From an uncultured Planctomycetia bacterium (GTDB taxonomy: Bacteria; Omnitrophota; Gorgyraeia; 2-02-FULL-51-18): DNA of 64,000 nt. Both the position numbers and the translations under genes were made by a program. The stretch spans positions 92,365 through 156,364 of the forward strand of contig CAZSGP010000004.1 of assembly GCA_964606485.1 (NCBI GenBank), in the 5' to 3' direction. The notes beneath the pieces are model-generated. The model had not been told where the DNA came from. It saw nothing but the letters and a program-made list of their open reading frames with translations, and did not search any database. Shown here piece after piece: positions 19,454 to 58,901 of the stretch (its first letter is position 1; each line of letters begins with the position of its first letter).

Positions 19454-19456
19454 CGA

Positions 19457-21479: not shown

Positions 21480-21484
21480 TTTTT

Positions 21485-21883: not shown

Positions 21884-21900
21884 GTGCTGAAAACTCCTTT

Positions 21901-23039: not shown

Positions 23040-23102
23040 GCCTTTTGGTTAGATTACAAACCATCAATATAGCATGGGTTAGGGGCCTTGCCAAGAGCCC
23101 GT

Positions 23103-23867
23103 TTAGGAGTCAGATTTGGACAGTTCAGCCCGTCTTTGGGCCCTTAAATCTTGAACAGGATTGCCGCCCCAGTAGCTTCGGGGGGGCACTCGCGTGCCTT
23201 TGGGCACAAAACTGCAGGGCGCAATGGTCGAACCATCCCCAATTTCCACGTCCGGCATGATCACGGAGTTGATTCCGATCGAAACGTTATTCCCAAGCTT
23301 CGTGCGAGCCAGACGAATAAAACCCCTCTCCGACGCATGGCAAATGAGGGCCGTTCCTCCACCCACAAGAACGTGATCTCCAATTTCCAGTAAGGATAGG
23401 TCCGCCAGTCCTCCGGTGTTGATATTCACGCCATTGCCGACTTTGGCGCCCATCAGACGGTAAAACAAAGTTTGGAACGGAGAGATGCGTAGAACATCTA
23501 AAAAGGCGGCATTCGCAATGAGAATCATCGAGTTGTAGCCCATCCAGCGCAAAGACTCCATAGCGTGGATCTTGTACAAACCCGGTTCGATTCTAAACCT
23601 AAAAACATTTTTGGCGAGTACACAAACAAAAATTAGCGTCGTTCCAAATAGAAAATAGCCAATCCCCAGGGACATCGAAAACGCCAAAAGCTTGACCCAA
23701 ACGCCGTAGACACCGGTCGCTTTCCACACCCAATAGAAAAAAGCGATCATGGGGAAAAAGCTAAATCCCAAGATAAGGGCTGCTAAGAGATGCAAGCCGT
23801 AAAGCCATTGCTGGAATCGCTTTTCATCGGCTTTCGCCTGCTTCATTTTTTCATCGGGGGTTGCCAT
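23103..23867 (-). CDS. Membrane-anchored left-handed beta-helix (hexapeptide-repeat) acyltransferase
   Basis: N-terminal TM helices are followed by hexapeptide repeats (VGNGVNINTGGLADLSLLEIGDHVLVGGG..., IGINSVIMPDVEIGDGSTIAP). The start is uncertain: GTG at 23885 or ATG at 23867 or 23846. Confidence 0.55.
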   Translation of the reverse strand: MATPDEKMKQAKADEKRFQQWLYGLHLLAALILGFSFFPMIAFFYWVWKATGVYGVWVKLLAFSMSLGIGYFLFGTTLIFVCVLAKNVFRFRIEPGLYKIHAMESLRWMGYNSMILIANAAFLDVLRISPFQTLFYRLMGAKVGNGVNINTGGLADLSLLEIGDHVLVGGGTALICHASERGFIRLARTKLGNNVSIGINSVIMPDVEIGDGSTIAPCSFVPKGTRVPPRSYWGGNPVQDLRAQRRAELSKSDS

Positions 23868-23912
23868 GAGTCTGGATTTTAACACATAGAGATGTTAAAT
23901 TAACGCCTGAAC

Positions 23913-24662
23913 ATGAGCTCTCACAAAAAAACAATCTTTATCAGCGGTGGCACTCGCGGAATTGGGCGCGCCATCACCCTTTCCCAGGCATCGGAAAAAA
24001 CCTGCCTTCTTTTGAATTATCTCCGCGACGAAGAGTCCGCGCTTCAAGTCAAACACGACGCCGAAAAAAAAGGCGCGGAAGTTCATTTGTACGCAGGAAA
24101 TGTCGGAGACACTGAGAATGTTAAATCCATCTTTGAACTGGTTGCGAAAGACCATCCCCGGATTGACGGCCTCATTCACAGCGCAGCACTCGGCGTCTTT
24201 AAACCGGTGCACCAATTGCGGGCCAAAGATTGGGACATTTCGATGGACGTAAACGCTCGCGCGCTTTTAACGCTGACGCAAAGCGCCCTGCCGCTCATGA
24301 AATCGCACGGCGGAAAAATTATTGCGATTTCCAGTCTCGGCGCCGGTCACTACACACCAAACTACGGCGCAATCGGTATTTCAAAAGCGGCTATGGAAAA
24401 TTTAGTGAGGTATCTGGCCGTCGAACTTTCGGTATTTAAAATTCAAGTCAATGCGGTCTCTGGCGGCCTTGTCGACACAGAGTCTCTCAAGATGTTTCCG
24501 GATTCCGAGAAAATGAAAAAAGAATACCTCCAAAAAACTCCCGGTGGACGACTTGGTCAACCCGAGGACATTGCGAGCGTCGTCTCCTTTCTTCTCAGCG
24601 AACAAAGCAACTGGATCATGGGCCAAACGTTGATCGCGGACGGTGGCTATTCTCTCTCCTAA
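23913..24662 (+). CDS. SDR-family oxidoreductase (ketoreductase or enoyl-reductase-like)
   Basis: The FISGGTRGIGRAI glycine-rich motif and the YGAIGISK YxxxK context; 249 aa. Confidence 0.8.
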   Translation: MSSHKKTIFISGGTRGIGRAITLSQASEKTCLLLNYLRDEESALQVKHDAEKKGAEVHLYAGNVGDTENVKSIFELVAKDHPRIDGLIHSAALGVFKPVHQLRAKDWDISMDVNARALLTLTQSALPLMKSHGGKIIAISSLGAGHYTPNYGAIGISKAAMENLVRYLAVELSVFKIQVNAVSGGLVDTESLKMFPDSEKMKKEYLQKTPGGRLGQPEDIASVVSFLLSEQSNWIMGQTLIADGGYSLS

Positions 24663-28401: not shown

Positions 28402-29301
28402 ATGCCAAATAACCCCTCTTCCTTTAAACCGCTTTACCCGATTCTCATTCTTCCGGCCATCGCCATTGTGGTGGCTCTCTTTATGGTGCAAACGGGGAAT
28501 CTCAAAAAGGAAAATAAGTCTCTCGTTGAAAAAATGAAATCACTCGAAAAAAACGTGGCTGTTCAAAAGGAATTTTTAGACAAGGTTGAGGGCCAAAAAA
28601 TTAAAATTATCAATTCCATGCGCAAAGTTCAGTCTGAAAACCAAGCGCTCGCCAAAGAGCTCGAGACCTTAAAAAATACGATGACCTCGACGGCGGATGA
28701 GAAAACTTATTTGGAAGACATTTTGATTCATAAAACAAAAGAAATTGAGTCGCTGTCCCGACAAGTGCAAAGCCAATCGGGAGCGACAAGCCCTGTACCG
28801 TCGAGCTCCATCCAGGAACTCGAAGCCCAGCTCAAACAAAAAAACATAGATCTAGCGCGGCTGAGCGAACAAAATCAAATCCTGTCGAAGAAAATGGAAA
28901 AATTATACAAAATGGCCAACGATAAAATTTCAGAGATCAATGTCGCAAAAATTGCGCTCGAAGATACGATTGCCAAAGCGCGTACAGGCCTTGAAAATGA
29001 ATGGTCCTCGGTGGACTTAGGATCGATTCAAACCAGTCCTAAAGAAAATGCAGCCCCTGCGGCCGCGAAAAAAGAAGGCAAGGTTCTCGCCGTCAATGAC
29101 GAACATGGATTTGTAGTGGTGGACCTCGGGAAAAATGACGGCATTAAACCCGGTGCGGTATTCACCGTCTCTCAAGACGGCGCGAGTGTTGCCACGTTAA
29201 ATATTTTAGAAGTTCGCGATGTGATGAGCGCCTGTAATGTTCAAAATCTTAGCTCCGGCCACAAGATCCGGATTGGGGACCCCGTTAAGATTGGGGGATA
29301 G
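28402..29301 (+). CDS. Membrane-anchored coiled-coil protein, function unknown
   Basis: N-terminal TM, ~180 aa of heptad-rich sequence, then a C-terminal ~70-aa beta-rich domain. Confidence 0.5.
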   Translation: MPNNPSSFKPLYPILILPAIAIVVALFMVQTGNLKKENKSLVEKMKSLEKNVAVQKEFLDKVEGQKIKIINSMRKVQSENQALAKELETLKNTMTSTADEKTYLEDILIHKTKEIESLSRQVQSQSGATSPVPSSSIQELEAQLKQKNIDLARLSEQNQILSKKMEKLYKMANDKISEINVAKIALEDTIAKARTGLENEWSSVDLGSIQTSPKENAAPAAAKKEGKVLAVNDEHGFVVVDLGKNDGIKPGAVFTVSQDGASVATLNILEVRDVMSACNVQNLSSGHKIRIGDPVKIGG

Positions 29302-36671: not shown

Positions 36672-37124
36672 CTAGATATGAAAGGTGATGTTTTGACTAC
36701 CTTTTGATTTGATTAACTTTCGTGTCTCATGGATCAAATCATGAAGCGTAGTGGACTGTAGACCCTCGTCCAATGAGGCTTTGAATCGCTTCCAGAATAA
36801 AAGCTCAGCCACTTGCGCCTCGCTGGGAGTATCGGTGGCTAGTGTGGGGCTAATTCCAGCAAAAGCTTTGGGAGTCAGCGTATAAAAAAGGGTTTCAAGA
36901 CTGATTTCGGACGGCTTTTTGGCAAGTACATAACCGCCTTGCGGACCGCGCAGGGTTTTAACCAGCCCCTTCTTCTTAAGCACATGCAGAATTTGCTCAA
37001 GGTAAGCCGGCGAAATATTTTCCTTTTTTGCAATTTGAGAAGCGGAAACCGAGCCCTCCGCGTAACGCCCGGCTAAAAAAAGAACGGCCTTTAAACCGTA
37101 AGTGGTGCGAGTTGAAAATTTCAC
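36672..37124 (-). CDS. Rrf2-family transcriptional regulator, cysteine-free (CymR-like rather than Fe-S IscR/NsrR-like)
   Basis: wHTH N-terminus MKFSTRTTYGLKAVLFLA...SQIAKKENISPAYLEQIL. There are no Cys residues anywhere in the 150 aa. Confidence 0.8.
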   Translation of the reverse strand: MKFSTRTTYGLKAVLFLAGRYAEGSVSASQIAKKENISPAYLEQILHVLKKKGLVKTLRGPQGGYVLAKKPSEISLETLFYTLTPKAFAGISPTLATDTPSEAQVAELLFWKRFKASLDEGLQSTTLHDLIHETRKLIKSKGSQNITFHI

Positions 37125-37312
37125 CGAGTCGATCGAATTTTAACGATGTTGATTTCTGTGCTAATCGACTCGAGCTTCTCGAGAATTTTTTCTTGGCTTG
37201 ATTCAATTTTATCAAGCCTTGAAAGAATGGCGGTGTTGTCCGCACTTTCCTCGGCGAACGTAAATGAAGCAAGCGACATTAAAGTGAGTGTTAAAAAAAT
37301 TGTTTTTTTCAT
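37121..37312 (-). CDS. Small secreted protein (63 aa)
   Basis: MKKTIFLTLTLMSLASFTFA signal peptide followed by an amphipathic helix. This is gene-caller-level evidence only. Confidence 0.35.
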   Translation of the reverse strand: MKKTIFLTLTLMSLASFTFAEESADNTAILSRLDKIESSQEKILEKLESISTEINIVKIRSTR

Positions 37313-37489
37313 TTTCGGGGTCTCCTTGTGAGAATTAAAATTCCGTAAAGAATAAAAATACTGGCCAGTGCCCATGCCAAACCAAATTTTTCAAATGGAT
37401 AGGGGATTTTTCGGATTCTAAAATACCGGTCCGTCAACCGGTACACGCCCAAAAAAAGACCGGCCGGTAAAAGACCGTACAGAAAAAAA

Positions 37490-38032
37490 TTAGTAGCTCT
37501 CGCCAGCCAGCGGTTCAACTTTGATGCCCCGCGATCTTAAGAATTTAATACCCGCTTCTAAATTTTTCTCGGTTCCTTCAAGCTCCAGCGTCATCTCCCC
37601 AATGGTTTCGGTGACACGCGCTTTACGGATATTGGGCATGATGTCGAATTTGGTCGCCATCAAAAACACAGCCGGTTCTTTGATTTGGTTTTGGGGAAAC
37701 ACGAGCGTCACTTGAGTTTTTACTTTTTTAGCTGTCTTTGATTTCGCGGGTTTTCCAGCACCACCAGCAATGGCCGGAATAATCGAAATGTCATCGCCAC
37801 TTTTAAGCGCCGTCTCTTGGCCTTGCAGAAAACGAATGTCTTCTTCATTGACGTAAACGTTTACGAAACGGCGAAGTTTTCCTTCGGCATCACAAATGCG
37901 TTCTTTGATACCTGGATAGGTTTTTTCCAGATGCGCGAGCATGGAGTTGATATCGGCCGCCTCGCAGAGCACTTCAGACTGGCCGGCGGTTAATTTTTGA
38001 AGCGGTGTAGGAATTCTTACTTTGACTGCCAT
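37490..38032 (-). CDS. MoaD/CysO-type sulfur-carrier domain (ending AIAGG) fused to a C-terminal NIL/ACT-like domain
   Basis: Residues 1-91 form a beta-grasp carrier ending ...[15 protein letters not shown] Lys-rich linker follows, then an ~70-aa domain ([12 protein letters not shown]...GIKVEP). Confidence 0.65.
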
Positions 38033-39279
38033 ACGTCCTCCTTGATCTTTTTTTCGCCTTTTAAAGCGTGTTCAAAAGATTCCAAATTTGCCTTAATCTT
38101 ATACGGCTTGCCGATGTGGTCCGTGATCGCTTCCTGGGTCTTGAGTCCATTTCCAGTAATGCAAATCACGACTGACTCATTTTTGGGAATGACCCCGTTT
38201 TCGATGAGCTTCTTCGTCACCGCGGTGGTCACACCACCCGCCGTTTCGGTAAAAATTCCCTCGGTTGAAGCCAAGAGCTTAATGCCATCAATAATTTCCT
38301 GGTCGGTCACCGTTTCGGCACAGCCGCCCGAGTCGCGCATGGCGTCCATCGCGTAAATGCCGTCAGCCGGGTTTCCAATCGCCAATGATTTGGCGATGGT
38401 CTTTGGCTTCACCGGTTTAATGATTTCGCTTTTGTCTCTCATCGCTTGTGCAACGGGAGAACAGCCCTCGGCTTGCGCGCCGTAAATTTTCGAATCGACT
38501 TCGTCAATCAAGCCGAGCTTTTTAAATTCTTTAAACGCTTTCCAAATTTTGACCAGCAGCGAACCGCTCGCGACCGGCACTACAATGTGCTTAGGGGTTT
38601 TCCATCCGAGCTGTTCCATCACTTCGTAGCCGTAGGTTTTGGAACCTTCAGCGTAATAGGGACGAATGTTAATATTTACGAACGCCCATTTGTAACGCGA
38701 AGCAATTTCCGCGCAGAGACGGTTCACGTCATCGTAATTTCCGTCGACGGCCACAAGATTCGGATTGTAAGCGAGCGCTCCGACGACTTTCCCCATTTCT
38801 AAATCAGAGGGAATAAAAATAAATCGATTGAGACCCGCCCAGGCGGCTTGAGCACTCACGGAACCGGCTAAATTTCCGGTCGAGGCGCAGGCTACGGTTT
38901 TAAAGCCAAGCTCTTTGGCTTTGGTGAGAGCGACGGCCACCACGCGGTCTTTAAAAGAAAGGGTTGGGTGACAAACGGAGTCATCTTTAATATAAAGCTC
39001 TTTAACTCCCAGCACTTTGGCGAGATTGTCCGCTTTAAAAAGCGGGGTGAAGCCTGCATGAAATCCGACCGTCGGGGCGCCATCAATCGGCAATAAGTCA
39101 CGGTAACGCCAAATCGACTGGGGGCCTTTTTCGATCGATGCGCGGCTAATCTTTTTCTTAATTTGTTCGTAGTCATAGTCGACTTCGAGGGACCCAAAGC
39201 AAAATTCGCAGACATAGGTTGCCGCAATCGGATAAATCCGCGAACATTCCCGGCACTTCAAACCTTTTACAAGACTCAT
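38017..39279 (-). CDS. Threonine synthase family PLP enzyme with N-terminal Zn-ribbon (ThrC or sulfur-carrier-dependent MetM-like)
   Basis: CxxC...CxxC ribbon (CRECSRIY...CEFCFG), the PLP lysine in PTLSFKDR, and a fold-type II Gly-rich loop. Confidence 0.8.
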
Positions 39280-39312: not shown

Positions 39313-40338
39313 TCACTTCTGGGGGGCTGATTCAACCTTGCCCGCGCTGAGCTCTTTGAGCAAACCGTTCTCAAAAAGTCCCGTCAAATCTGGCTCCTTT
39401 TTAAGAAAACCAGCTAGATACGCCGAATGCGCCTGCTGTTTCACCGTCTCGGCGAGGGGATCCGTCGTAAACGCCACCCGCTTCCAAGCCGAGTCGAGGA
39501 TGATCTGATCCATGGGTTTTCCGGTTTCTCGCTCGATTTCCTTTTTAAAAGCGGCCTTCGCCTCTTCGGGATGAGCGTTGATCCAAGTTGTGAGCTCCAC
39601 ATGAGTTTTTAGAAATTTTTTGACGAGTTCCGGATTTTTTTTCAGAAACTCGGTACGCACTAAGACCACCGTGGTGGCGTATTTCCCATCGGGCCAGAGA
39701 GAAGATTCCTCCAGATACACTTTTGCGCTAGCGGTTTTTTCTAAAATCGAAACCCAGGGCTCCACTGTCCAAGACGCTTCAATTTCTTTTTTAAGAAAAA
39801 GAGAAACGTGGTCGGAATTAGACACTGGCAGCACCGAGACGTCTCCCCCTTTTTCAGACAGTTTTAAATTATTTTGAGCAAGCCACGAACGAAGCGACAC
39901 GTCCTGGGTATTGCCTAGTTGAGGTGACGCGATTTTTTTTCCGTGAAAATCTTCAGGCTTTGTAATTCCAGAATCCGCTCGCACTAAAAGGGCTGCTCCA
40001 CCGGAACTCGCGCCCGCAACAATCCGCACCGCTTCCCCTTGGGATTTCACATACGCATTCACCGCGGGACTCGGTCCGATGTACGCAATATCAAGCTGTC
40101 CGGCAAATAGCGCCTCTACCGCCGAGGGTCCGGCATTGAACGTCTTCCAGTCAATCGGAGCATCCGGCGATAAGCTTTTTTCAAACCATCCCTCGCCGCG
40201 GCCGATCAGTGCTTGGGCGTGCGTGATGTTGGAAAAATGTCCAACTCGGACCGCAGTCCGTGACGGATCCGCTGACGTTCTAGTGGCGGACCCGACTCCA
40301 ATTATAAAAATAAAAAATAGCCCTAAGATTTTTTTCAT
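39313..40338 (-). CDS. ABC transporter substrate-binding protein, NitT/TauT (SsuA/TauA-like) family
   Basis: The ATG at 40338 gives MKKILGLFFIFIIGVGSATRTSA (signal peptide). The 149-aa upstream extension of the six-frame ORF overlaps the permease gene and is rejected. Confidence 0.75.
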   Translation of the reverse strand: MKKILGLFFIFIIGVGSATRTSADPSRTAVRVGHFSNITHAQALIGRGEGWFEKSLSPDAPIDWKTFNAGPSAVEALFAGQLDIAYIGPSPAVNAYVKSQGEAVRIVAGASSGGAALLVRADSGITKPEDFHGKKIASPQLGNTQDVSLRSWLAQNNLKLSEKGGDVSVLPVSNSDHVSLFLKKEIEASWTVEPWVSILEKTASAKVYLEESSLWPDGKYATTVVLVRTEFLKKNPELVKKFLKTHVELTTWINAHPEEAKAAFKKEIERETGKPMDQIILDSAWKRVAFTTDPLAETVKQQAHSAYLAGFLKKEPDLTGLFENGLLKELSAGKVESAPQK

Positions 40339-41093
40339 CGTCTTTCCAGCCCCCAAATAACCCGGACTTCTCGTTCCAAGCGTCCAAAAATAAAAATGTC
40401 CATAACCACTCCGATAACGACGATCACAATCATCACGGCAATCACCTGGCTCATATCGTTGAGCTCGCGGCCCATGTTTAAAAGATGTCCTAGTCCTAGG
40501 CTCACAAAAAGAATTTCTCCTGCCATCAGGGAACGCCAAGCAAAAGACCATCCCTGCTTGAGGCCCGCCAAAATGGACGGGAACGCGGCTGGTAGAACGA
40601 CTTCGGTGAAGAGCCGCATCCCTTTGGCGCCCATATTCACTCCGGCTCGCAAAAAAAGAGGTTGGATGGATTTGACGCCGCCGTCCGTCGCAATCGCCAC
40701 TGACAACATCGATCCCATCACCACGACGAAAATAATCGCGGACTCGTTTAATCCAAACCATAAGATAGCTAGGGGCAACCAACAAATGCTCGGCAAGGTT
40801 TGAAGGCCGACGAAAAATCCACCGAGCGTTTCATCTAAAATTTTAAATTTCCCGATCAAGAGACCTAGCAGCACTCCAAAAAAAACAGAGATGCCATATC
40901 CAATTACAAGGCGCTTCATACTGACACCGATCGCAATCAAAAACGAGCGGTCTGCGAAACCCAATTGCAGGGTTTCCAAAACCTGCCCGGGTGACGGGAA
41001 AAGATACGGAGGCCAGATCTTTAAATTATAAAAAAATTGCCAGCCGGCAATCAGCAGTCCATAGAACGCAAGTTGCCTTAAAATTTTGAGCAT
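40335..41093 (-). CDS. ABC transporter permease (SsuC/TauC-like)
   Basis: 252 aa with 6 TM segments and a binding-protein-dependent transport signature region. Confidence 0.8.
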   Translation of the reverse strand: MLKILRQLAFYGLLIAGWQFFYNLKIWPPYLFPSPGQVLETLQLGFADRSFLIAIGVSMKRLVIGYGISVFFGVLLGLLIGKFKILDETLGGFFVGLQTLPSICWLPLAILWFGLNESAIIFVVVMGSMLSVAIATDGGVKSIQPLFLRAGVNMGAKGMRLFTEVVLPAAFPSILAGLKQGWSFAWRSLMAGEILFVSLGLGHLLNMGRELNDMSQVIAVMIVIVVIGVVMDIFIFGRLEREVRVIWGLERR

Positions 41094-41102
41094 GCGTTCC
41101 TA

Positions 41103-42032
41103 TTAGATATTAAAATATGGTTCAAGACTCAAATAACGTTCGCCAGAATCTGGGAAAAGCGTCACGACGGTTTTTCCTGCGCCTAAACTCTTAGCCACCT
41201 TTAAGGCGCCTACACAGGCCGCACCACACGAAATACCGGCAAAGATTCCTTCTTCTTTCGAAAGCCTTTTGGACATCTTGTAGGCTTCTTGATCTTCGAC
41301 GGCAATAATTTCGTCTACAATCTTTCGATTCAGAACATCCGGCACGAAACCTGCGCCGATTCCTTGAATCATATGCGGACCGGGTTTACCACCGGACAAA
41401 ATTGCAGACGTTGCCGGTTCCACCGCCACGATTCGGATATTTGGAAATTGTTTCTTTAAAACTTCTCCCACACCGGTCAACGTTCCGCCAGTGCCGACTC
41501 CGGCCACGAACGCATGAATCTCACCTTCGACGTCGTGCAAAATTTCCTTAGCGGTCGTTTTTTTGTGCGCGCCCGGGTTGTCCGGGTTCATAAACTGTTG
41601 AGGCATAAAAGCACTCGGCGTTGCCGCGACAATCTCACGCGCTTTTTCGACTGCTCCGACCATGCCATCACGCGCCGGAGTCATCACTACTTGCGCGCCA
41701 AAACTTTCTAAAATTTGGATCCGCTCCTGGCTCATCGCTTCCGGCATGGTGAGAATAACCTTGTAACCCTTCACCGCTCCGACAATGGCAAGGCCGATGC
41801 CGGTGTTACCGCTTGTGGGCTCCACAATCACGCAACCCGGTTTCAGCAGTCCTTTTTTTTCAGCCTGCTCGACCATGTTGAAAGCAATACGGTCTTTGAC
41901 ACTGGCGCCCGGGTTAAACATTTCCAATTTCGCCAAAACAGTCGCCGAGTTTTTTTCCACGACTTTGTTGAGACGCACGATCGGCGTATTACCAATGAGT
42001 TCTAACGCGTTTTCGTAAACTTTGTTATTCAT
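41103..42032 (-). CDS. cysK: Cysteine synthase (O-acetylserine/O-phosphoserine sulfhydrylase)
   Basis: The PLP lysine in [21 protein letters not shown], and full-length CysK/CysM similarity. Confidence 0.9.
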
Positions 42033-42250
42033 TACGCTCCCCCACCCATATAAAAAATAAACTCCACTTTATCCCCGTTTTTAATTTCCGTCGTCTCGTA
42101 GTCGAGTTTCTGTAAAATATTTTCGTTTATTTCAACCGTCACAAGCTCCGGTTTCATTTTCCATTTCGTGAGTAGGGCTGTGACGCTTAGACCTGCCTGA
42201 ATTTCTTGGGGTTTTCCGTTCAGCGTAATCTTAATCAGTTGGTCGGCCAT
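42032..42250 (-). CDS. ThiS/CysO-like sulfur-carrier protein ending ...YMGGGA
   Basis: A 72-aa beta-grasp protein. A C-terminal Gly-Gly followed by one extra residue suggests protease maturation. It lies between the JAMM protease gene and cysK. Confidence 0.65.
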
Positions 42251-42262: not shown

Positions 42263-42664
42263 TTAATCGACGATATTAATTGTTTCTTCCGACACTTTTT
42301 CGTTTTCAATCTTAAATGAACGTAAAATGGGTTTTTGCATATCTGAGAGTGACACGATCAAATAACTGGGCTCTGGGTAAAACGCAAGGCGCACATCTTT
42401 TTGGGACGGAAATGCCTCACTCGCCACATGCGAGTGAAATATTCCCGTCAGTTCTAATTTCAAATCGCGCATTTCTTTAAAAACCTTGAGCTGTTCTTTT
42501 GGATCCATAAAGTAACTGACACTCGCCTCGTCCATGTTGCGCATGGGGAAATATTTTGAACCTTCCTTTTCCTTCGAACCCGCTAAAATGCCGCAGGCCT
42601 CGTTGGGAAATCCAGCCTTGGCGTGTGCGATCATGTCGTTGTAAACCGATTTTTTGAGTTTCAT
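42263..42664 (-). CDS. JAMM/MPN+ metalloprotease (Mec+ type sulfur-carrier C-terminal hydrolase)
   Basis: JAMM motif E..HSHVASEAFPSQKD (H-x-H-x7-S-x2-D). Confidence 0.8.
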   Translation of the reverse strand: MKLKKSVYNDMIAHAKAGFPNEACGILAGSKEKEGSKYFPMRNMDEASVSYFMDPKEQLKVFKEMRDLKLELTGIFHSHVASEAFPSQKDVRLAFYPEPSYLIVSLSDMQKPILRSFKIENEKVSEETINIVD

Positions 42665-43494
42665 TAGATATTGCTCCCCACGTTGCGCTCGGCAGCAGTC
42701 AGCGGCCGGTGCGTGGTTTCAATGTCGAGTTGTTCGCGCGCAACTTTGTCGATTTCGTCCTTCAACGAGGACATGATGCGCGCTTGTATCGTTAAAAGAT
42801 GCGGATCTTGTTCTGTGCGCGGTCGTGGCACGTGAATCGCGTACTCGCCTTTAATTGCACCAGGCCGCGCTGAAATTTCGAGCACGCGGTCGGCTAAAAA
42901 TGTCGCTTCGCGCACATTGTGCGTCACAAAAAAAATGGTTTTCTTCGTTTTCTGCCAAATATCCTGCAGTTCTTCCATCAGCATCTGGCGAGTTTGAGCG
43001 TCGAGAGCAGCAAACGGCTCATCCATGAGTAAAATTTTGGGGTCCATGACGAGCGCTCGCGCAATCGCCGCGCGCTGTTTCATGCCGCCGGAGAGTTCGT
43101 GAGGATGTGCGTTTATAAATTTCGACAGATGCACCATCTTGATCGCCTCCATCGCGCGCTCACGTCGTTCGGCTTCCGCGACACCCGCGATTTTCAAACC
43201 AAAACTCACGTTCTCTAAAACGGTGAGCCACGGAAAAAGAGCCGCTTCTTGAAAAACCACAAGCCGGTCTGGCGAGGGACCGGTCACGGCCTTGCCTTCT
43301 ACAAAAACCTCTCCAGAGTCGGGGAATTCCAATCCCGCGATCATCGAGATCAGCGTGGACTTCCCACAACCCGAAGGACCGAGCACGCAAATAAATTCTC
43401 CGTCCTCAATGCTGAAATTCACGTCCCGAAGGACCGATATTTTTTGGCCTTTTTGCTTAAAACTTTTATGAATGTGTTTTAAAGAAACTTTCAT
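42664..43494 (-). CDS. ABC transporter ATP-binding protein (SsuB/TauB-like)
   Basis: Walker A GPSGCGKST, the LSGGMKQR signature, and Walker B LLMDEPF. The ATG at 43494 overlaps the cysH stop as TAATG. Confidence 0.85.
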   Translation of the reverse strand: MKVSLKHIHKSFKQKGQKISVLRDVNFSIEDGEFICVLGPSGCGKSTLISMIAGLEFPDSGEVFVEGKAVTGPSPDRLVVFQEAALFPWLTVLENVSFGLKIAGVAEAERRERAMEAIKMVHLSKFINAHPHELSGGMKQRAAIARALVMDPKILLMDEPFAALDAQTRQMLMEELQDIWQKTKKTIFFVTHNVREATFLADRVLEISARPGAIKGEYAIHVPRPRTEQDPHLLTIQARIMSSLKDEIDKVAREQLDIETTHRPLTAAERNVGSNI

Positions 43495-44198
43495 TATTTT
43501 TTGGGCAAGTGCAATCCGCACTCTTTGTGTTCGGGGTTTTCCCACCACCAGCGACCCGCGCGCACATCTTCGCCAGACTTAACGGCCCGCGTGCAAGGCG
43601 CACAGCCAATGGACGGGTAGCCCAAATCATGCAGCCTGTTGTAAGGAACTTTATTGGCCTTGATGTAATCCCAAACTTGTTTTTCGGTCCAGTCTGCCAG
43701 AGGATTGATTTTAAAAATTCCTCCGTGCGATGCATCTGTTTCTACTTTTTGAACGTCCGCGCGCGTCACCGACTGTTCACGCCGCAAACCCGTGATCCAC
43801 GCTTCCAAACCGCTTAAAGCTCGATTGAGCGGTTCGACTTTGCGGATGCCACAGCACTCTTTACGGTTTTCGATGGACTCCTTAAACGAAAAAAATCCCT
43901 TCACACGTTCGAGCGTTTCCACTTTTACTGCGTCCGGAAAATACGACTCGATTGAAATTTTATATTTGCGTCGGATCGCGTCCATCACTTCATACGTTTC
44001 TTCGTTCAAACGGCCGGTGTCGAGCGTGAAAATGCGCGCAGACGGATCAATCTTTACTAAAAGATCAATGAGCACCACGTCTTCGGCGCCAAAGGAAGAG
44101 GCTAATGCAATCTTAGAACCGAATTGCTTGATCGCCCACCGCAAAACAGTTTGCGGATCTTGATTTTTAAATTCTGAATTTAATTTTTTAATATCCAT
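43494..44198 (-). CDS. cysH: Adenosine 5'-phosphosulfate (APS) reductase, Fe-S type CysH
   Basis: PAPS_reduct fold with the C-terminal ECGLH motif, a Cys-Cys pair (KECCGIRK) and a CxxC (CAPC), consistent with the [4Fe-4S] APS-specific subclass. Confidence 0.85.
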   Translation of the reverse strand: MDIKKLNSEFKNQDPQTVLRWAIKQFGSKIALASSFGAEDVVLIDLLVKIDPSARIFTLDTGRLNEETYEVMDAIRRKYKISIESYFPDAVKVETLERVKGFFSFKESIENRKECCGIRKVEPLNRALSGLEAWITGLRREQSVTRADVQKVETDASHGGIFKINPLADWTEKQVWDYIKANKVPYNRLHDLGYPSIGCAPCTRAVKSGEDVRAGRWWWENPEHKECGLHLPKK

Positions 44199-44263: not shown

Positions 44264-45544
44264 TCAAATTGCACTAAAATGTTCCGCTTTTTTTAGAATA
44301 ATCCCGCCGCCGCGCACGTCGTGCTCATGAACAATCACAAAGCGCCCGGTTTCAGGGACCACGTCAAACGTGTCGAATGCCACAGGCTTCTTCGTCGAAA
44401 AAATAATTTCCGCTACTTCATTCTTTGCGACTTCGGTGGCGTTTCTAGAAATTTCCTCGAGTGTCGAAGAGTTGATCACTTTCAAAATAGACTCCACCGT
44501 GCATTCGACTTCTTGAGTGCCCACTTTTAAAAGGTATTTGCCGGCTTTTTGGAGATGTTTATTGCCCATCCAAAATAAATTGGCGTGGAACCGATCGGAC
44601 ACATGCGGCGCCTGGGTTTTTAAAGCGCCGATTTCCCCGCGCTCCACAAAAATCTGATCTTCCATGGTAAAACCAACCGATTGACCCGCGTGGGCTTCTG
44701 ATTTAAGAGGCCCATTCCAGTTTTCGATGGTTTTAATTTTAACGTTTTTGCCTGACGGGTAGAACGCTAGCTCGTCGCCTACCTTGATGCTGCCGCTCTC
44801 TACGCGGCCGGCAATAATGCGTCGCTTGTCGAATTTGTAAACGTCCTGCACCGGGTAGCGAAATGGCGCCTTCGTGCGGTCGTCGCTCGTTGCAAAATTA
44901 TCGAGAATTTCAAGAATCGATTGACCCGTGTACCAATCCATTTTCGTGCTTTTTTGCATCACGTTTTCGCCGTGATACGCCGAAATCGGAACAAACACGC
45001 GGGGCTTCACGCCTATCGTCGACAAATACTGCGTGTACGTTTTTTTGGTGTTTTCAAATACTTCCTGAGAATAATTCACCAAATCCATTTTATTCATCAC
45101 AATCGCAATTTGTTTGATGCCGAGTAGCGACAATAAATACGCGTGTCTCCGGCTTTGTTCCTGAATCCCTTCTTCGGCGTCGATCATGAGAAACGCCACG
45201 TCCGCGTTAGACGCGCCGGAAATCATGTTCTTCAAAAATTCTTTATGGCCTGGCGCATCGATAATGACGTAATTGCGTTTTTTGGTTTTAAAATAAATTT
45301 GTGCCACGTCAATCGTAATGCCCTGATCGCGCTCTTCTTCGAGTCCATCGAGCAAAAATGCAAACTCAAAACCTTTGCCCTGGTCTTCGCAAACTTTTTT
45401 CACATGCGCAAATTTATTTTCAGAAATAAATCCCGTTTCATGCAAAATCCGTCCGACGAGTGTCGACTTTCCATGGTCGACGTGTCCGACCATGACAATT
45501 TTTAACGTTTCCCCGGTCAGCGTGTCTTCAGTGACTTTACTCAT
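44264..45544 (-). CDS. cysN: Sulfate adenylyltransferase subunit 1 (GTPase) without APS-kinase domain
   Basis: GTPase G1-G4 motifs: GHVDHGKST, DAPGH, NKMD. 426 aa. Confidence 0.9.
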   Translation of the reverse strand: MSKVTEDTLTGETLKIVMVGHVDHGKSTLVGRILHETGFISENKFAHVKKVCEDQGKGFEFAFLLDGLEEERDQGITIDVAQIYFKTKKRNYVIIDAPGHKEFLKNMISGASNADVAFLMIDAEEGIQEQSRRHAYLLSLLGIKQIAIVMNKMDLVNYSQEVFENTKKTYTQYLSTIGVKPRVFVPISAYHGENVMQKSTKMDWYTGQSILEILDNFATSDDRTKAPFRYPVQDVYKFDKRRIIAGRVESGSIKVGDELAFYPSGKNVKIKTIENWNGPLKSEAHAGQSVGFTMEDQIFVERGEIGALKTQAPHVSDRFHANLFWMGNKHLQKAGKYLLKVGTQEVECTVESILKVINSSTLEEISRNATEVAKNEVAEIIFSTKKPVAFDTFDVVPETGRFVIVHEHDVRGGGIILKKAEHFSAI

Positions 45545-46353
45545 TACATGTAACCTTTCGCTCTTAATTTCTGCATGGCGTACGTGTCTTCCTGGTCCTG
45601 CGCACGGCCCGCTCGTTCAGAGGACTTCGTCGCTTTAAGCTCTGTGATAATTTCATCGACGGTGCTCGCGTTCGAATCGATGGGAAATGTGCAAGGCGCG
45701 CATCCCAAACTCCGGTAACGCTTTCCGTTTTTGGAGTAGTACAAGTCCACAAACGGAATATTTTCGCGCTTGATGTACTCCCACACATTCACTTCGGTCC
45801 AGTGTAAAAGCGGATGAATGCGGATATGCGTATTCTCATCAAAATTGGTTTTGAACTGATCCCAGAGCTCCGGCGGCTGATCCTTAAAATCCCATTCGAA
45901 GTTTTTGTCGCGCGGCGAAAAGTAGCGCTCTTTGGCGCGAGTGGATTCTTCGTCGCGACGGATGCCTAAAATCAAACCCTTATAATCGTACTGTTCCATG
46001 ATCTGCTGGAGACCGGCGGTCTTCAACGCACTGCAGCAAACCATACGGCCCTTGGTGTGGTTCATTCCATCGGCCAAAGCCGCTTTGTTCTGACCGACAA
46101 TCAAATTAAGATTCCATTCCTTGGCGTACTTGTCGCGAAACGCGATCATCTCGGGGATTTTGTAACTCGTGTCAATGTGAACGAGCGGAATTGGCACGTG
46201 GCCATAAAACGCCTTGCGGGCGAGCCACAAAAGCACATTGGAGTCCTTGCCGATTGACCACAACATGGCCAATTTCTTAAATTTTTTGTACGCTTCGCGC
46301 AAAATGAACACCGATTGGTGCTCTAGCTTGTCTAAATGGTCTTGAGAATCCAT
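45544..46353 (-). CDS. cysD: Sulfate adenylyltransferase subunit 2
   Basis: PAPS-reductase-like ATP-PPase fold with SIGKDS in the P-loop context; 269 aa. Confidence 0.9.
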
Positions 46354-46445: not shown

Positions 46446-47348
46446 CTAGACGGCTTCAACCTCGTGGATTTTATTCAGCTCGATATGCACTTTCCGGTCC
46501 GGGCGCCGGGTAATCATGTCCTTAAAACGAGCATTCCAGACAATATCTTCCGGCGTATACGAGAATCGGGCATTCACGGCTTCCCCCACCGTGTCATCAA
46601 CACCGGTCAGTGAGGCCAAAATTTCGATTTCAGCGTGCTGCATTTTCCCAGAGTCCATTCCGTAGAGAGGGCTCGATTCATCAATCGGGTGAACCGCCGT
46701 CCAGGTCAGTGCAAAAAGTGGTGAGCGGCTGCGCTCGAGTTTTAAATCATACAGGCGGCGAAATTTTTCACCCTCTTTTGTAAATTCGTTCTTAATGAGC
46801 ACCACATCCATGTGTGCTTCGACGATTTGGCTTAAACGTTTGTTGGCCACGCGAAAGATCAGCGATGCAACGCCGTCGTAAACGCCGATAATCGCCACAT
46901 TGCTAAAAATAACTCCAGCAGTGGGCTTTGAAAATCGCGCAAATAAAAGTCCGGTGATCATCGCCACGCTGAGAAGTCCGACAAACGCTTCCACGGTCAC
47001 AAGGAGATTGGGCACAAAAGCCAAGGGGCTGATGCGGCCGTACCCAATCGTCGCAAAAGTTTGGACGCTAAAGAAAAAGCAGTCCATGAAATGAAGAATG
47101 AGATTGTCGCGACGAATGCCCGAAAGCGCTGCTGGCCCACACAAAAAATAGGCAAAAGCGAAGAAGAGATTCACGGTTAAATACGTTCCGATCACAAGAC
47201 TAAAAAACTCCGTCCACGTCATCGAAAGTAAGCTGTGATACCCGTCCGTGCCGAAGCGCTTTTTATAGCCTTCGCGCGCAACGTTGAGTGTGCCGTCGCG
47301 GTTTAAAACGCGCCAGCTTTTGGGAGCGCTAGATCCGTTCGATGACAT
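46446..47348 (-). CDS. Inward-rectifier-type potassium channel (KirBac family)
   Basis: Two TM segments flank the pore helix with the selectivity filter TIGYG. A cytoplasmic Ig-like C-terminal domain follows. Confidence 0.8.
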   Translation of the reverse strand: MSSNGSSAPKSWRVLNRDGTLNVAREGYKKRFGTDGYHSLLSMTWTEFFSLVIGTYLTVNLFFAFAYFLCGPAALSGIRRDNLILHFMDCFFFSVQTFATIGYGRISPLAFVPNLLVTVEAFVGLLSVAMITGLLFARFSKPTAGVIFSNVAIIGVYDGVASLIFRVANKRLSQIVEAHMDVVLIKNEFTKEGEKFRRLYDLKLERSRSPLFALTWTAVHPIDESSPLYGMDSGKMQHAEIEILASLTGVDDTVGEAVNARFSYTPEDIVWNARFKDMITRRPDRKVHIELNKIHEVEAV

Positions 47349-48893: not shown

Positions 48894-50174
48894 ATGAAAG
48901 CGCCAAAGACAATCGAACTCACTGTCGAAAAGCTAGTGCTGGGCGGCCAGGGCTTGGCACGGCAGAACGACAAAACCTATCTGATTTGGAACGCGCTCCC
49001 GGGCGAGACCGTGAACGCGCTGATTTTATCCAAGCGCGGTGGGATTTTTGACTGCATGGCGGTTCAAGTTTTAAAACCCTCTCCGGAAAGGATCAAGGCC
49101 GCCGAGAAACACTCGCTCTCCTGCAGTCCTTGGCAAATCTTGTCGTTTGATTCTGAAATTGAGTGGAAAAAAAAGATCGCGCTCGAAGCTTACCGTCACA
49201 TCGGAAAACTCGACGTGGAGTCTCTTGAGATTTTGTCGGATCAGCATTTTTTTGGTTACCGCAATAAAATGGAATATAGCTTTGTCTCCGACAATGGCTT
49301 GTCGCTCGCTTTCTTCGAGCGCAGTTCGCATCACCGCGCACCGATTGCGCCGTGTCTTTTAGCGCGTCCTGAAATCAACGAAACCGCGGTGAAAGTGCTC
49401 GACTGGCTCAAAAAAGAAAAGTACCCCGAGCCCTGCCTTAAGAATTTGATTGTCCGTTCAGGGGAAGATAAAAAAACAGTGGCGGCTCTTCTCATTCAAG
49501 AGGATTTGGCCATCACCGCGTCTCCGGAACTCGATGAACACTTCACCGGATTTGAAATTTATTATTCGAATCCTAAAAGTCCCGCCGCAGTGCCACACAA
49601 AAAAATCTTAAGCCGCGGATCGTTGATGCTAAATTGGAAATTGCTAAGCGCCGACTTTCGCTTTGGCGCGTTTAGCTTTTTTCAGATCAATCCACCGGTT
49701 TTCCAAATGGCGCTTGAGGCGATGCTTCCTTTTACAAACCCAGAGGATGATATCGTCGATTTTTACGGAGGGGTCGGTGCCATCGGCTTGTCGCTTCACG
49801 GCCGTTACCGCTCGAGTCTCATTATTGATAGCTCTGCCGATGCCATTACCTGCGCCAAAGAAAATATCGAGTGGAATCAGTTTTCAAATTGCAAAGCCGT
49901 ACTCGCGCCCTCAGAGAAAATGATTTCAGAAATCACCAAAGACCGGCTCGTGATTCTTGACCCGCCGCGCGCGGGACTACACGAGGATGTCGTCAAAAAA
50001 ATTCTATTGGAGAAACCATCGCGCGTGATTTATTTGTCCTGCAATCCGGCGACCCATGCGCGGGATTTAAAATTGCTTACTCAAGGGTACTCACTGAAAC
50101 TTCTGAAACTGTTTAATTTCTTTCCGCGCACACCGCATATCGAAGCACTAGCGGTGCTGGATCATCTCTCGTAA
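48894..50174 (+). CDS. rlmD: 23S rRNA (uracil-5-)-methyltransferase RlmD/RumA family
   Basis: N-terminal TRAM domain, and a C-terminal SAM-MTase with DPPRAGL and the nucleophile Cys in YLSCNPAT. Confidence 0.85.
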   Translation: MKAPKTIELTVEKLVLGGQGLARQNDKTYLIWNALPGETVNALILSKRGGIFDCMAVQVLKPSPERIKAAEKHSLSCSPWQILSFDSEIEWKKKIALEAYRHIGKLDVESLEILSDQHFFGYRNKMEYSFVSDNGLSLAFFERSSHHRAPIAPCLLARPEINETAVKVLDWLKKEKYPEPCLKNLIVRSGEDKKTVAALLIQEDLAITASPELDEHFTGFEIYYSNPKSPAAVPHKKILSRGSLMLNWKLLSADFRFGAFSFFQINPPVFQMALEAMLPFTNPEDDIVDFYGGVGAIGLSLHGRYRSSLIIDSSADAITCAKENIEWNQFSNCKAVLAPSEKMISEITKDRLVILDPPRAGLHEDVVKKILLEKPSRVIYLSCNPATHARDLKLLTQGYSLKLLKLFNFFPRTPHIEALAVLDHLS

Positions 50175-51781
50175 AGCATGTCATGAACTTTGAATTTTTG
50201 CTCAAGCAAAGGATCTTCGGCTTTCGGTAGCGTGTCGATATAATCGCTCCACTCTTTTTCAATTGTCTTCGCGTCTTTTCCGAGAGCTTCCAGAAGCCAA
50301 TTGTAGTCATCGGACTGCCCAGATTTTTCGGAACTGATTCGTTTTAAATATTTTAAAAATGGAGCGTGGTAGTTTTTCATAAGAAATCCTACAAACCCCC
50401 AGCTTTGGGCGTAGCCTGAAAGCATGGCCTCACTGCAAATGCCGGGAAAACTTCCCATTTTAAAAACCGTAAGCTGAGACAGCGGCCAGAGTTCATTTTT
50501 AGCTTTAGTTTCTTTGAGCAAGTACAACCGTTCGTCGTTCGGTAGTCCCGCCGCAGTGGTTGACGCGTACTCGGCGGTTCCTTCTACAAACCAGGAGTTA
50601 CTGGCCACGATATTTTCCGCCTTTGCTTTCTGCGAACGCGCTTCTAAAAGCGACATGATGAACTGTTTCTTGTCTTCACTAGGCGCTTCGTTTTTCGCAT
50701 CAACGCTGGATTTAGAAAGATCCACCGACTGAAGTCCAAAATTATTGAACACGCCATGCGTAATTTCATGTCTCAGCGTCACGACCGCAATGTCCGAAAA
50801 AATAGAGCGGATGTAACTCAGTGCACGCTCTACTCTCTCCTTTATTTCTTGAGAGAGTCCCTGCACGCGCAGCGCATAACTAGCATTTTTGGACTTCTCC
50901 GCAGTCTGGGACATGCTGTCCGCAAATTTTTGTACGCCCGCCACGGCTTCGGTGATATAACCCGAAAACTGGTCTCCCATAAAATTCATCATAAATAGCG
51001 TTTTGGCTTGCGGATCAAAAAACCCGGGGCACATTTGCGCTGGCACACCGTGAACGGCTGCTTCCTTGGCGTACTCTTCGTATTGATCAAACGCCACGAC
51101 AAAAATTTGACCTTGGGGCGAGCGATCTTTGAAAAGTTCAAAAAATTCACTGTAAATTAACCCGCATTGATCCGTAATCATTTTTTTAATTTCCTTAAGA
51201 GACGCGCCGTCCGTGTCCGTAAACAAGGTTACAAAGCCAAGTTCCGTCGACTTCATTTTCGGGAATGCTGCGGCGATCTCTTCTTGTCGCTTTTGATCTT
51301 CAGCGGCGCGCATCACTTTAAAATCCAATTTTTCTATTTTTTTCCATGGAATGTCCTGGTAAGCAAAAGCTCCCCCGCCCAAGTCTTGCGCGATGACAAC
51401 GACATCTTTTTTGATGTCCGAAATTTTCCCGTCTATGATCTGACCGTTTTGAAGATGAACCACTGGATTATTTTTATAAATTTTAGCGGCGGCGGCTTTA
51501 TCGACAATCACCATGCCATCGCCTTCTAGTTTTTTCCCGGTGTCGATGGATTTGATTTCGCTTCGCTTGAGCGTCATCTCCATGCCTTCCCAAATCACGG
51601 TCACCGAGGTTTTGTTTTCGGATTTAATCTGGCAGCTCATGCCGTTGCCGTTTTTAAGATAAATGGTTGCCGCGGCTAGAGATTTTTTTGGAGAAGCCGC
51701 CAAGCAGACGCTTTGAAACATAAAAAGAGTGAGCATTGAAATGATTAAAAGATTCTTAGGCTTGCTCATTTGGGGGGGCAT
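50162..51781 (-). CDS. Secreted hypothetical protein with an HExxH motif (HEITH)
   Basis: Signal peptide; 539 aa; LRHEITHGVFNNF. Confidence 0.4.
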   Translation of the reverse strand: MPPQMSKPKNLLIISMLTLFMFQSVCLAASPKKSLAAATIYLKNGNGMSCQIKSENKTSVTVIWEGMEMTLKRSEIKSIDTGKKLEGDGMVIVDKAAAAKIYKNNPVVHLQNGQIIDGKISDIKKDVVVIAQDLGGGAFAYQDIPWKKIEKLDFKVMRAAEDQKRQEEIAAAFPKMKSTELGFVTLFTDTDGASLKEIKKMITDQCGLIYSEFFELFKDRSPQGQIFVVAFDQYEEYAKEAAVHGVPAQMCPGFFDPQAKTLFMMNFMGDQFSGYITEAVAGVQKFADSMSQTAEKSKNASYALRVQGLSQEIKERVERALSYIRSIFSDIAVVTLRHEITHGVFNNFGLQSVDLSKSSVDAKNEAPSEDKKQFIMSLLEARSQKAKAENIVASNSWFVEGTAEYASTTAAGLPNDERLYLLKETKAKNELWPLSQLTVFKMGSFPGICSEAMLSGYAQSWGFVGFLMKNYHAPFLKYLKRISSEKSGQSDDYNWLLEALGKDAKTIEKEWSDYIDTLPKAEDPLLEQKFKVHDMLYER

Positions 51782-53490: not shown

Positions 53491-53744
53491 GAAATCTCCT
53501 TTAGATAGCGCACTTTCTGCTCGCGCGGCCATTGTTTAATTGCGGCCTCCCGCTTCAAGGCCTTGCTGCGACTTGCACATTCTTCCCGGTAAACGAGTCT
53601 CACCGGCAATCGACTGCGAACGTACTTGCTGCCCTTGCCTGATCGATGCTCTCGGACACGGCGTGCCACGTCGAGCGCTATCCCCGTGTAAAGCGATCCG
53701 TCGCGGCAGCGCAACATATAGATAAACCATCGGGGCTGAGCCAT
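53487..53744 (-). CDS. GIY-YIG domain nuclease-family small protein (UPF0213/YhbQ-like)
   Basis: 85 aa with WFIYMLRCRDGSLYTGIALDVARRVREH...KALKRE. Confidence 0.8.
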   Translation of the reverse strand: MAQPRWFIYMLRCRDGSLYTGIALDVARRVREHRSGKGSKYVRSRLPVRLVYREECASRSKALKREAAIKQWPREQKVRYLKEIS

Positions 53745-53795
53745 CGAAAAATTCTACCACTAAGGACTTCTTTGGACCTATGTGAGTTTTATGAG

Positions 53796-54996: not shown

Positions 54997-55005
54997 GAGT
55001 CACCT

Positions 55006-58814: not shown

Positions 58815-58901
58815 TTAAAAAATCTCCGGTTTCAACATTGCGATGATGAGATACACCAGCAATGCAATGGCCAGACTTCCGCCGATCCAATAAATTGTCA
58901 T
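58815..58901 (-). CDS. kdpF: Potassium-transporting ATPase subunit F (28-aa TM peptide)
   Basis: MTIYWIGGSLAIALLVYLIIAMLKPEIF. Its TAA stop overlaps the kdpA ATG, and its size and ...PEIF C-terminus match KdpF. It is not in the supplied ORF track. Confidence 0.6.
   Translation of the reverse strand: MTIYWIGGSLAIALLVYLIIAMLKPEIF

Follow-up and report, generated by a model that had tools for sequence, protein, structure and literature searches.

Does a homologue of threonine synthase (ThrC) that is encoded beside a sulfur-carrier gene make threonine, or does it make homocysteine? This question was raised by a stretch of 64,000 nucleotides of contig CAZSGP010000004.1 (assembly GCA_964606485.1), referred to below as the window, in which a gene of the minus strand (38017-39279) encodes a ThrC-like protein of 420 amino acids and is followed by a gene for a CysO-type carrier. 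A thiocarboxylate route from O-phosphohomoserine to homocysteine, with MetO, Mec, MoeZ and MetM as its components, has been described for Streptomyces albulus (Hasebe et al. 2024; 10.1101/2024.10.14.618325). This description bears out what an earlier, sequence-only reading of the window had stated, namely that ThrC homologues using a carrier thiocarboxylate for homocysteine formation were already known; MetM proteins are also commonly mislabelled as threonine synthase (10.1101/2024.10.14.618325). Taken together, the comparisons described here make it likely that the product of 38017-39279 is a MetM-type homocysteine synthase, whose substrates would be O-phosphohomoserine and a carrier thiocarboxylate. 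Enzymes of this kind have been known since 2024, and the less ordinary part of the locus is the fusion of its carrier to a NIL domain.

The ThrC-like protein and its relatives

The 420-residue protein matched Pfam PALP over residues 74-376 (E 1.4e-66), and in the alignment K110, lying within S108-F-K-D-R112, was the counterpart of K61, the lysine of Thermus thermophilus ThrC that binds pyridoxal 5'-phosphate (PLP). Lysine occupied this column in 99 of the 102 members of the MetM-like clade (described below) that have a residue there. Cysteines C9, C24 and C27 of the N-terminal zinc ribbon were invariant in a 14-sequence alignment spanning several phyla. Four solved bacterial ThrCs aligned to the protein from about residue 51-56 on, so that, in comparison with them, the ribbon extends the protein at its N-terminus. 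As a marker of MetM the ribbon was rejected, since it also occurs in many ThrC-like proteins that do not belong to the core clade. The features on which the sequence-only reading had relied, a ThrC homologue with an SFKDR lysine and a CxxC...CxxC ribbon, thus held up against PALP, the NCBIfam model TIGR00260 and the alignment. So did the genetic setting that it had described, with a sulfonate-type (SsuA-family) binding-protein gene of an ATP-binding cassette (ABC) transporter upstream and a CysO homologue downstream, and away from thrA and thrB: neither hom nor thrB was found within the window. Two features go beyond that description, the fusion of the downstream carrier to a NIL domain and a second, ThiS-type carrier of 72 residues encoded further upstream, next to a JAMM peptidase and a CysK.

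Relatives were collected from 1.8 billion representative proteins and from one scan of GTDB species genomes, of which the 80 best-scoring loci were analysed (given here by L numbers); Streptomyces was not among them. A further search was seeded with an actinobacterial homologue, and its best 120 matches were all from Micromonosporaceae. The 80 relatives were 57-83% identical to the 420-residue protein and came from phyla including Omnitrophota, Nitrospirota, Thermodesulfobacteriota, Verrucomicrobiota, Cyanobacteria (Microcystis among them), Chloroflexota, Planctomycetota and Nitrospinota, the closest homologues carrying source names of Candidatus Omnitrophota. In one alignment, the protein was 59% identical to the Microcystis orthologue and 52% identical to those of Micromonospora and Actinoplanes, but its identity to the ThrCs of known structure (B. 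subtilis, A. aeolicus, T. thermophilus and M. tuberculosis) was 36-38%. The link to the characterised MetM of S. albulus runs through Microcystis, where the protein named 'ThrC' has 51.6% identity to S. albulus MetM and the product of the neighbouring gene has 47% identity to MetO (PMC12172450).

Neighbour-joining united the four solved ThrCs and five second paralogues from related genomes in one clade, and the 80 relatives, the actinobacterial proteins and the 420-residue protein in a separate group. Bootstrapping (100 replicates, 61 taxa, neighbour-joining) recovered the canonical ThrC clade in 91 replicates, and in 100 of 100 the most recent common ancestor of the MetM-like core had no canonical ThrC among its descendants. 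The phylogeny therefore sets the protein apart from bona fide threonine synthases, and a position within them, one of the two points named beforehand as speaking together against a MetM-like enzyme, proved false.

Gene neighbourhood, riboswitches and thrC paralogues

A CysO-type carrier gene lay directly 3' of the MetM-like gene, on the same strand, in 74 of the 80 loci, and clustering of all neighbouring open reading frames (ORFs) showed it to be the sole partner kept across phyla. This adjacency is not universal, since the Micromonospora and Actinoplanes loci had no carrier gene within 6 kb. A SAM-I riboswitch, which senses S-adenosylmethionine (SAM), was located directly 5' of the orthologue in Micromonospora coriariae (RF00162, 69.2 bits, L081 5855-5990) and in Actinoplanes derwentensis (72.7 bits, L082 5852-5991; gathering score 44.4), both genes being annotated 'threonine synthase'. 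Control by SAM places these orthologues in the methionine regulon. A SAM riboswitch has also been reported upstream of S. albulus metM, and none for Microcystis (PMC12172450). The riboswitch is lineage-specific and does not define the family, being present in the actinobacterial orthologues and absent from the window.

A second, canonical thrC was present within 10 kb in 5 of the 80 loci. In three of them, from Nitrospirota/Thermodesulfovibrio (L004, L006 and L007), it came just after the genes for the MetM-like enzyme, the carrier and the NIL protein, so that two users of O-phosphohomoserine are encoded side by side; in the two Nostoc loci (L059 and L067) it was about 7 kb off. These paralogues were 57-66% identical to the solved ThrCs (66% to Aquifex ThrC for that of L004) and 33-38% identical to the MetM-like proteins. 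Microcystis also has a separate canonical enzyme, ThrC2 (PMC12172450). Because such separate paralogues exist, the MetM-like clade cannot simply be equated with the threonine synthase of its hosts.

Active-site residues

Nine canonical ThrCs were compared with the 109 members of the MetM-like clade in T. thermophilus numbering. G58, G64, T88, S155, N157, R160, Q164, G187-N-A-G-N191 and S248 were present in all nine canonical enzymes and R242 in eight of them. In the clade, G58, G64, T88, S155 and N157 were replaced by L, V, L, I or V, and R almost without exception, and R160, Q164, G187-N191, R242 and S248 by near-invariant Y, S, A-S/G-G-S-L, A and D. The corresponding residues of the 420-residue protein were L107 (G58), V113-V114 (G64-M65), L137 (T88), I203 (S155, adjoining a one-residue insertion), R206 (N157), Y209 (R160), S213 (Q164), A237-S-G-S-L241 (G187-N-A-G-N191, with S238 for N188), A300 (R242) and D306 (S248). 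We take T88, S155, R160 and N188 of T. thermophilus ThrC to be the residues that hold the phosphate of substrate or product and thereby steer water to C-beta. If this role is correct, the signature fits an enzyme that would have kept the first half of the ThrC reaction and lost the addition of water.

Because phylogeny, synteny, regulation, paralogy and active site all agree, we place the protein in the MetM family over canonical ThrC. The proposal of a MetM-like enzyme made from the DNA letters was thus supported at the level of sequence comparison, by the tree, by the carrier gene in 74 of 80 loci, by the SAM riboswitches, by the separate thrC paralogues and by the active-site residues.

Homocysteine synthase, threonine synthase or both

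Several observations weighed against this assignment. The 'thrC' equivalog model TIGR00260 was passed by the 420-residue protein (306 bits, cut-off 167), and the outer limit of the MetM-like core towards neighbouring zinc-ribbon ThrC-like proteins was poorly resolved (27 of 100 replicates). An Rfam scan of the window gave no SAM riboswitch, a single tRNA being the only match, and the window contained no gene for an E1-like enzyme, for homoserine kinase or for methionine synthase. Besides, the Microcystis orthologue showed weak threonine-synthase and threonine-deaminase activities in vitro, and methionine was not raised upon its induction (PMC12172450).

Because of these activities and the unraised methionine, we kept a bifunctional reading open, in which a promiscuous enzyme would produce homocysteine when supplied with thiocarboxylated carrier and otherwise threonine or 2-oxobutyrate, one gene thereby serving both branches in a small genome. 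The ThrC reaction and the homocysteine-forming reaction proceed via a common PLP-vinylglycine intermediate, as is established in PLP chemistry, and no second thrC was found in the window. The clade-wide replacement of canonical site residues nevertheless suggests that addition of water at C-beta is disfavoured, and related genomes have kept a separate canonical thrC where enough sequence was visible. We consider dual function unlikely.

It is quite improbable that the protein is a true threonine synthase of a divergent zinc-ribbon subtype, and perhaps the sole one of the organism, with an incidental or regulatory position in the sulfur operon. Such an enzyme would explain the TIGR00260 score, the score of 296.8 bits with NF006050 (PRK08197; cut-off 303), whose profile covers the zinc ribbon, the name 'threonine synthase' given to the relatives by every source that names them, the lack of another thrC in the window and the threonine-synthase activity of the Microcystis orthologue in vitro (PMC12172450). 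However, TIGR00260 was passed equally by the riboswitch-controlled orthologue (241 bits), the Microcystis protein (354 bits) and a canonical paralogue (328 bits), and since MetM-like and canonical proteins pass alike, the label 'threonine synthase' does not discriminate between them. NF006050 scored MetM-like proteins at 284-297 bits, just under its cut-off, and this model may in turn derive from a zinc-ribbon group that is related but of uncertain function; NCBIfam release 20 held no MetM model. Moreover, the protein fell outside the canonical clade with T88, S155, N157, R160 and N188 all replaced, the carrier gene accompanied its relatives in 74 of 80 loci, five related genomes had a separate canonical thrC (three of them inside the same gene string), and SAM control is more in keeping with a gene of methionine synthesis than with one of threonine synthesis.

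Use of another activated amino acid, for instance the formation of cysteine from O-phosphoserine and the CysO-type carrier, or a reaction like that of cysteate synthase, the CysK/ThiS pair then having another role, is very unlikely: the closest solved relative of the carrier is indeed a protein of cysteine synthesis (M. tuberculosis CysO), the operon is otherwise devoted to cysteine and sulfate assimilation and the cysteate synthase model TIGR03844 gave a weak match (80 bits), but this match is far under the cut-off of the model (325), the operon already has a dedicated CysK whose translation is coupled to that of a carrier of its own, the SAM riboswitches of the actinobacterial orthologues point to methionine instead of cysteine, and the family has been assigned to homocysteine synthesis (10.1101/2024.10.14.618325; PMC12172450).

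The carrier and its NIL domain

The gene for the MetO-like carrier overlapped the MetM-like gene by 16 nt and encodes a two-domain precursor of 180 residues (Table 1). The best solved relative of the carrier domain, M. tuberculosis CysO (3dwg_C, E 1.4e-21), matched it from end to end through the Gly-Gly, and G90, G91 and the IIPAIAGG motif were invariant in 14 Omnitrophota homologues. The Gly-Gly of the precursor is internal, with 89 residues after it. The linker that follows, which is predicted to be disordered, was unconserved among the Omnitrophota homologues, with a length spread of about 18 residues (proteins of 171-189 residues), and the NIL domain behind it was highly conserved. This domain matched its Pfam model with 56.6 bits (gathering score 24) and, weakly, also the C-terminal domains of MetN. 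About 1,900 homologues of the precursor were found, and both the ThiS and the NIL domain were present in all 120 of those listed. The AlphaFold2 model of the precursor comprised two folded domains, NIL being a separate one with the element order beta-alpha-beta-beta-alpha-beta, and had a predicted local distance difference test value below 50 at residues 88-100 and a predicted template-modelling score of 0.44; the model indicates a flexible tether between domains without a fixed mutual arrangement.

Several forms of the carrier were observed in the 80 loci. Free-standing carriers of about 91 residues ending ...AGG included all cyanobacterial ones, except one in L026, and many others, and some free-standing carriers had 1-6 residues beyond the Gly-Gly. 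A separate NIL ORF of about 80-93 residues came next in about 24 loci (Nitrospirota, Verrucomicrobiota and others), and the carrier was fused to NIL in 9 loci (Omnitrophota and some Thermodesulfobacteriota). In L014, a carrier was fused past its Gly-Gly to a ThiF-type E1 (11235-12302, 355 residues) and a separate NIL protein of 80 residues was encoded after this fusion (12309-12551). The operon of L014 also had genes for sulfite reductase, CysH, TauE, JAMM, ThiS, CysK and siroheme synthase.

Because carrier chemistry needs a free Gly-Gly carboxylate, fused carriers must be cut, and by analogy with other carrier fusions the 180-residue precursor probably needs cleavage by the JAMM peptidase encoded in the operon. 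We propose, tentatively, that the MetM pathway of many non-cyanobacterial phyla consists of MetM, a CysO-type carrier and a NIL protein, with JAMM cutting the fused carrier-NIL precursors, and that the freed NIL domain is an undescribed component of the pathway. Once released, this domain might be a sensor of methionine or homocysteine, as that of MetN is in feedback control, or a partner which receives the product. If cut by JAMM, the precursor would be a bacterial counterpart of eukaryotic ubiquitin-fusion precursors. In Iyer et al. 2006 (PMC1779556), ThiS/MoaD proteins were not tied to threonine synthase or to NIL.

Proposed mechanism

CysDN and CysH would activate and reduce sulfate, and sulfide would come from a sulfite reductase whose gene lies outside the window. 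JAMM would cut the 180-residue precursor after Gly91, giving a CysO-like carrier that ends in Gly-Gly and a separate NIL domain, and an E1-like adenylyltransferase-sulfurtransferase of the MoeZ/ThiF type, also encoded outside the window, would adenylate and thiocarboxylate the carriers. The MetM-like enzyme would then eliminate phosphate from O-phospho-L-homoserine to form the PLP-bound vinylglycine intermediate, to which the sulfur of the carrier thiocarboxylate would be added at C-gamma, whereas ThrC adds water at C-beta. The resulting carrier-homocysteine adduct would be resolved by JAMM, as CysO-cysteine is by Mec in M. tuberculosis, and JAMM, the ThiS-type carrier and CysK would make cysteine in parallel. 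The most speculative step is that of the NIL domain, which might act in sensing or hand-off of methionine or homocysteine. The fold, the catalytic lysine, the clade, the synteny, the riboswitch of the orthologues, the paralogy with thrC and the active-site signature were observed directly, whereas the substrates, the cleavage, the pairing of carrier with enzyme and the role of NIL are what we infer in this scheme.

Comparison with known systems

The MetM/MetO system of S. albulus resembles the present locus in having a ThrC-homologous PLP enzyme with a small carrier gene and a JAMM/Mec-type peptidase in the system; its metM riboswitch is matched by those of the actinobacterial orthologues, and the family is usually annotated 'threonine synthase'. 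It differs in that the host here is a Candidatus Omnitrophota member, the riboswitch is lacking, the genes are part of a cysDN-cysH-ABC-JAMM-thiS-cysK operon beside an Rrf2 gene, and no E1 is encoded nearby. In addition, the carrier here is fused to NIL after the Gly-Gly, whereas cyanobacterial MetO homologues have about 91 residues and end in Gly-Gly (PMC12172450).

With the CysM-CysO-Mec+ system of M. tuberculosis (CysM-CysO complex, PDB 3DWG), the locus shares a CysO-homologous carrier domain and a logic that combines a PLP enzyme with an O-phospho amino acid, the thiocarboxylate of a carrier and a hydrolase of the JAMM type. The enzyme here has the ThrC fold instead of the CysK/CysM fold, would presumably convert O-phosphohomoserine to homocysteine, and is accompanied by a carrier made as a fusion precursor. 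Krishnamoorthy and Begley reportedly described in 2011 a pathway of Wolinella succinogenes (HcyS/HcyD/HcyF/MetY) in which homocysteine is formed from a protein thiocarboxylate after a JAMM protein has removed the C-terminal extension of the carrier. The enzyme is said to be of the MetY type (fold type I) and to use O-acetylhomoserine, and the extension to be a single alanine. In the present locus, the extension is a folded NIL domain instead of a single alanine, and a ThrC-fold enzyme takes the place of the MetY-type one.

Canonical ThrC (PDB 6CGQ, 2ZSJ, 1UIM and 2D1F) shares with the 420-residue protein the fold, the motifs SFKDR, STGN and TGxGLK, and probably the substrate, and differs from it in the identity of 36-38%, the lack of the added zinc ribbon, the replaced site residues, and linkage to hom/thrB instead of to a sulfur carrier. 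Cleavage of carrier fusions has precedents in the MoaD-MoaE fusions, since M. tuberculosis MoaX needs cleavage for activity (PMC4326299) and D. radiodurans DR2607 is cut by DRJAMM (PMC8832034). These fusions likewise have a MoaD-type carrier at the N-terminus and require a cut after the Gly-Gly, by JAMM in the case of D. radiodurans; the fused partner here, however, is a NIL domain and not a partner enzyme, and its cleavage is one that we infer. Other NIL proteins, namely the C-terminal domain of MetN and the NIL/ferredoxin protein MA1822/DvMF_0262 of the DUF39 homocysteine pathway (PMC5764234), are similarly tied to homocysteine or methionine metabolism, but NIL in the present family is fused to, or encoded just after, a sulfur carrier, without a ferredoxin or ABC ATPase domain.

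The sulfur-assimilation operon

The MetM-like gene is the tenth of 11 genes, all on the minus strand and tightly strung, neighbours either overlapping or lying no more than 65 nt apart, which are transcribed in the order CysD, CysN, CysH, ABC ATPase, JAMM, ThiS-type carrier, CysK, permease, SsuA, MetM-like enzyme and carrier-NIL precursor (Table 1). It is separated by 33 nt from the SsuA-family gene upstream. The gene of the ThiS-type carrier, preceded by that of JAMM, overlaps the start of CysK, a case of translational coupling, and judging from the sequences these three form a CysO/HcyS-like cysteine module inside the operon. The JAMM protein had an intact H77-x-H79-x7-S87-x2-D90 motif, as read from its sequence, and matched the NCBIfam desampylase model with 79 bits, under the cut-off of that model. 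The ThiS-type carrier does not end in GG and would need trimming, a task that we also propose for JAMM, which would thus mature both carriers.

Table 1. Features of the MetM-like locus, and canonical thrC paralogues in related loci (positions in the window unless an L number is given)
Feature	Position	Strand	Basis or remark
MetM-like ThrC-fold PLP enzyme, 420 aa, ATG start	38017-39279	-	Fold, family models, clade placement
N-terminal zinc-ribbon motif, C9xxC12-x11-C24xxC27	39199-39255	-	Sequence, alignment
Codon of PLP-binding Lys110 (SFKDR)	38950-38952	-	Alignment to T. thermophilus K61
MetO-like sulfur-carrier precursor, 180 aa	37490-38032	-	Pfam ThiS (residues 5-91) and NIL (residues 108-173)
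Carrier domain, residues 1-91, ending IIPAIAGG	37760-38032	-	CysO match 3dwg_C
Variable, low-complexity linker after Gly-Gly; proposed region of JAMM cleavage	37712-37759	-	Homologue alignment, AlphaFold2
NIL domain, residues 108-173	37514-37711	-	Pfam PF09383, E 2.4e-15
CysD (operon head; sulfate activation)	45544-46353	-	Translation and tblastn matches in related loci
CysN (sulfate activation)	44264-45544	-	Translation and tblastn matches in related loci
CysH, adenosine 5'-phosphosulfate/3'-phosphoadenosine 5'-phosphosulfate (APS/PAPS) reductase	43494-44198	-	NCBIfam and Pfam
ABC ATPase, nitrate/sulfonate/taurine type, probable start MKVSLK	42664-43494	-	NCBIfam and Pfam
JAMM/MPN+ (Mec-like) metallopeptidase	42263-42664	-	Pfam Prok-JAB, E 2.4e-25
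ThiS-type carrier, 72 aa, ending GGGA	42032-42250	-	TIGR01683 thiS, 66 bits
CysK-type cysteine synthase	41103-42032	-	TIGR01139, 449 bits (cut-off 351)
ABC permease, nitrate/sulfonate/taurine type	40335-41093	-	NCBIfam and Pfam
SsuA-family ABC substrate-binding protein, probable start MKKILG	39313-40338	-	TIGR01728, 221 bits
Terminator-like hairpin with T-run	37451-37477	-	Consensus match only; 13 nt past the carrier stop codon
Rrf2/CymR-like regulator	36672-37124	-	TIGR00738, 105 bits; CymR model 91 bits, under cut-off
Canonical thrC paralogues	L004 2168-3268; L006 1974-3101; L007 11856-12947

The genes of the SsuA/TauABC-type transporter are split, with those for JAMM, ThiS and CysK standing between the ATPase and the permease and binding protein, and their best NCBIfam matches were 'Sao' models, all under cut-off. 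Downstream of the carrier gene, the hairpin with T-run is the probable end of the operon. The Rrf2/CymR-like regulator encoded beyond it may control the operon in place of a SAM riboswitch, and an Rrf2 gene also flanks the MetM module in L001, L008, L016 and L080. Between the carrier and Rrf2 genes lie two small overlapping ORFs of the minus strand (37121-37375 and 37309-37518; 84 and 69 residues), hydrophobic or signal-peptide-like; on L084, a metagenome contig encoding an identical carrier protein, a single gene of 63 residues had been called in this interval. A Pfam scan of the window, covering ORFs of at least 150 residues not nested inside a longer ORF, found no ThiF/MoeB-type E1, sulfite reductase, hom, thrB, metX, metY, metE or metH.

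Consequences for annotation

Assignment to MetM corrects a systematic misannotation, in which relatives in Omnitrophota, Nitrospirota, Thermodesulfobacteriota, Verrucomicrobiota, Cyanobacteria, Chloroflexota, Planctomycetota and Actinomycetota are called 'threonine synthase', the NCBI thrC model being unable to split MetM-like proteins from real ThrC. Because of this misannotation, metabolic reconstructions of these largely uncultured lineages would miss a homocysteine route and might wrongly predict methionine auxotrophy. A residue signature, consisting of STGNL, N-[IV]-N-x-R-P-[YF]-Y-x-E-G-S-K-T and P-x-A-[SG]-G-S-L, could seed a MetM-specific model. The NIL domain, which recurs as a fusion here and as an ORF of its own behind the carrier gene in other phyla, is a concrete and testable lead; to our knowledge, NIL domains have long been linked to methionine metabolism without a defined function.

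Other features of the window

Outside the operon, an ORF of 1453 residues (2126-6487, minus strand) had no Pfam match at E 1e-5, and Pfam matches were also lacking for ORFs of 539 (50162-51781, minus strand), 228 (53646-54332, plus strand) and 299 residues (28402-29301, plus strand). A cluster at 14856-24662 encodes an AMP-binding enzyme, a class-III aminotransferase, a HAD hydrolase, two ketoacyl synthases, a FabA-like dehydratase, two SDRs and a hexapeptide transferase; its product may be an unusual lipid or amino-lipid. A gene for a KirBac-type inward-rectifier K+ channel (46446-47348, minus strand) immediately precedes the sulfur operon, and a few kb beyond it a Kdp K+-ATPase system (KdpC, KdpB, KdpA and KdpD) is encoded at 54334-62437 on the same strand.

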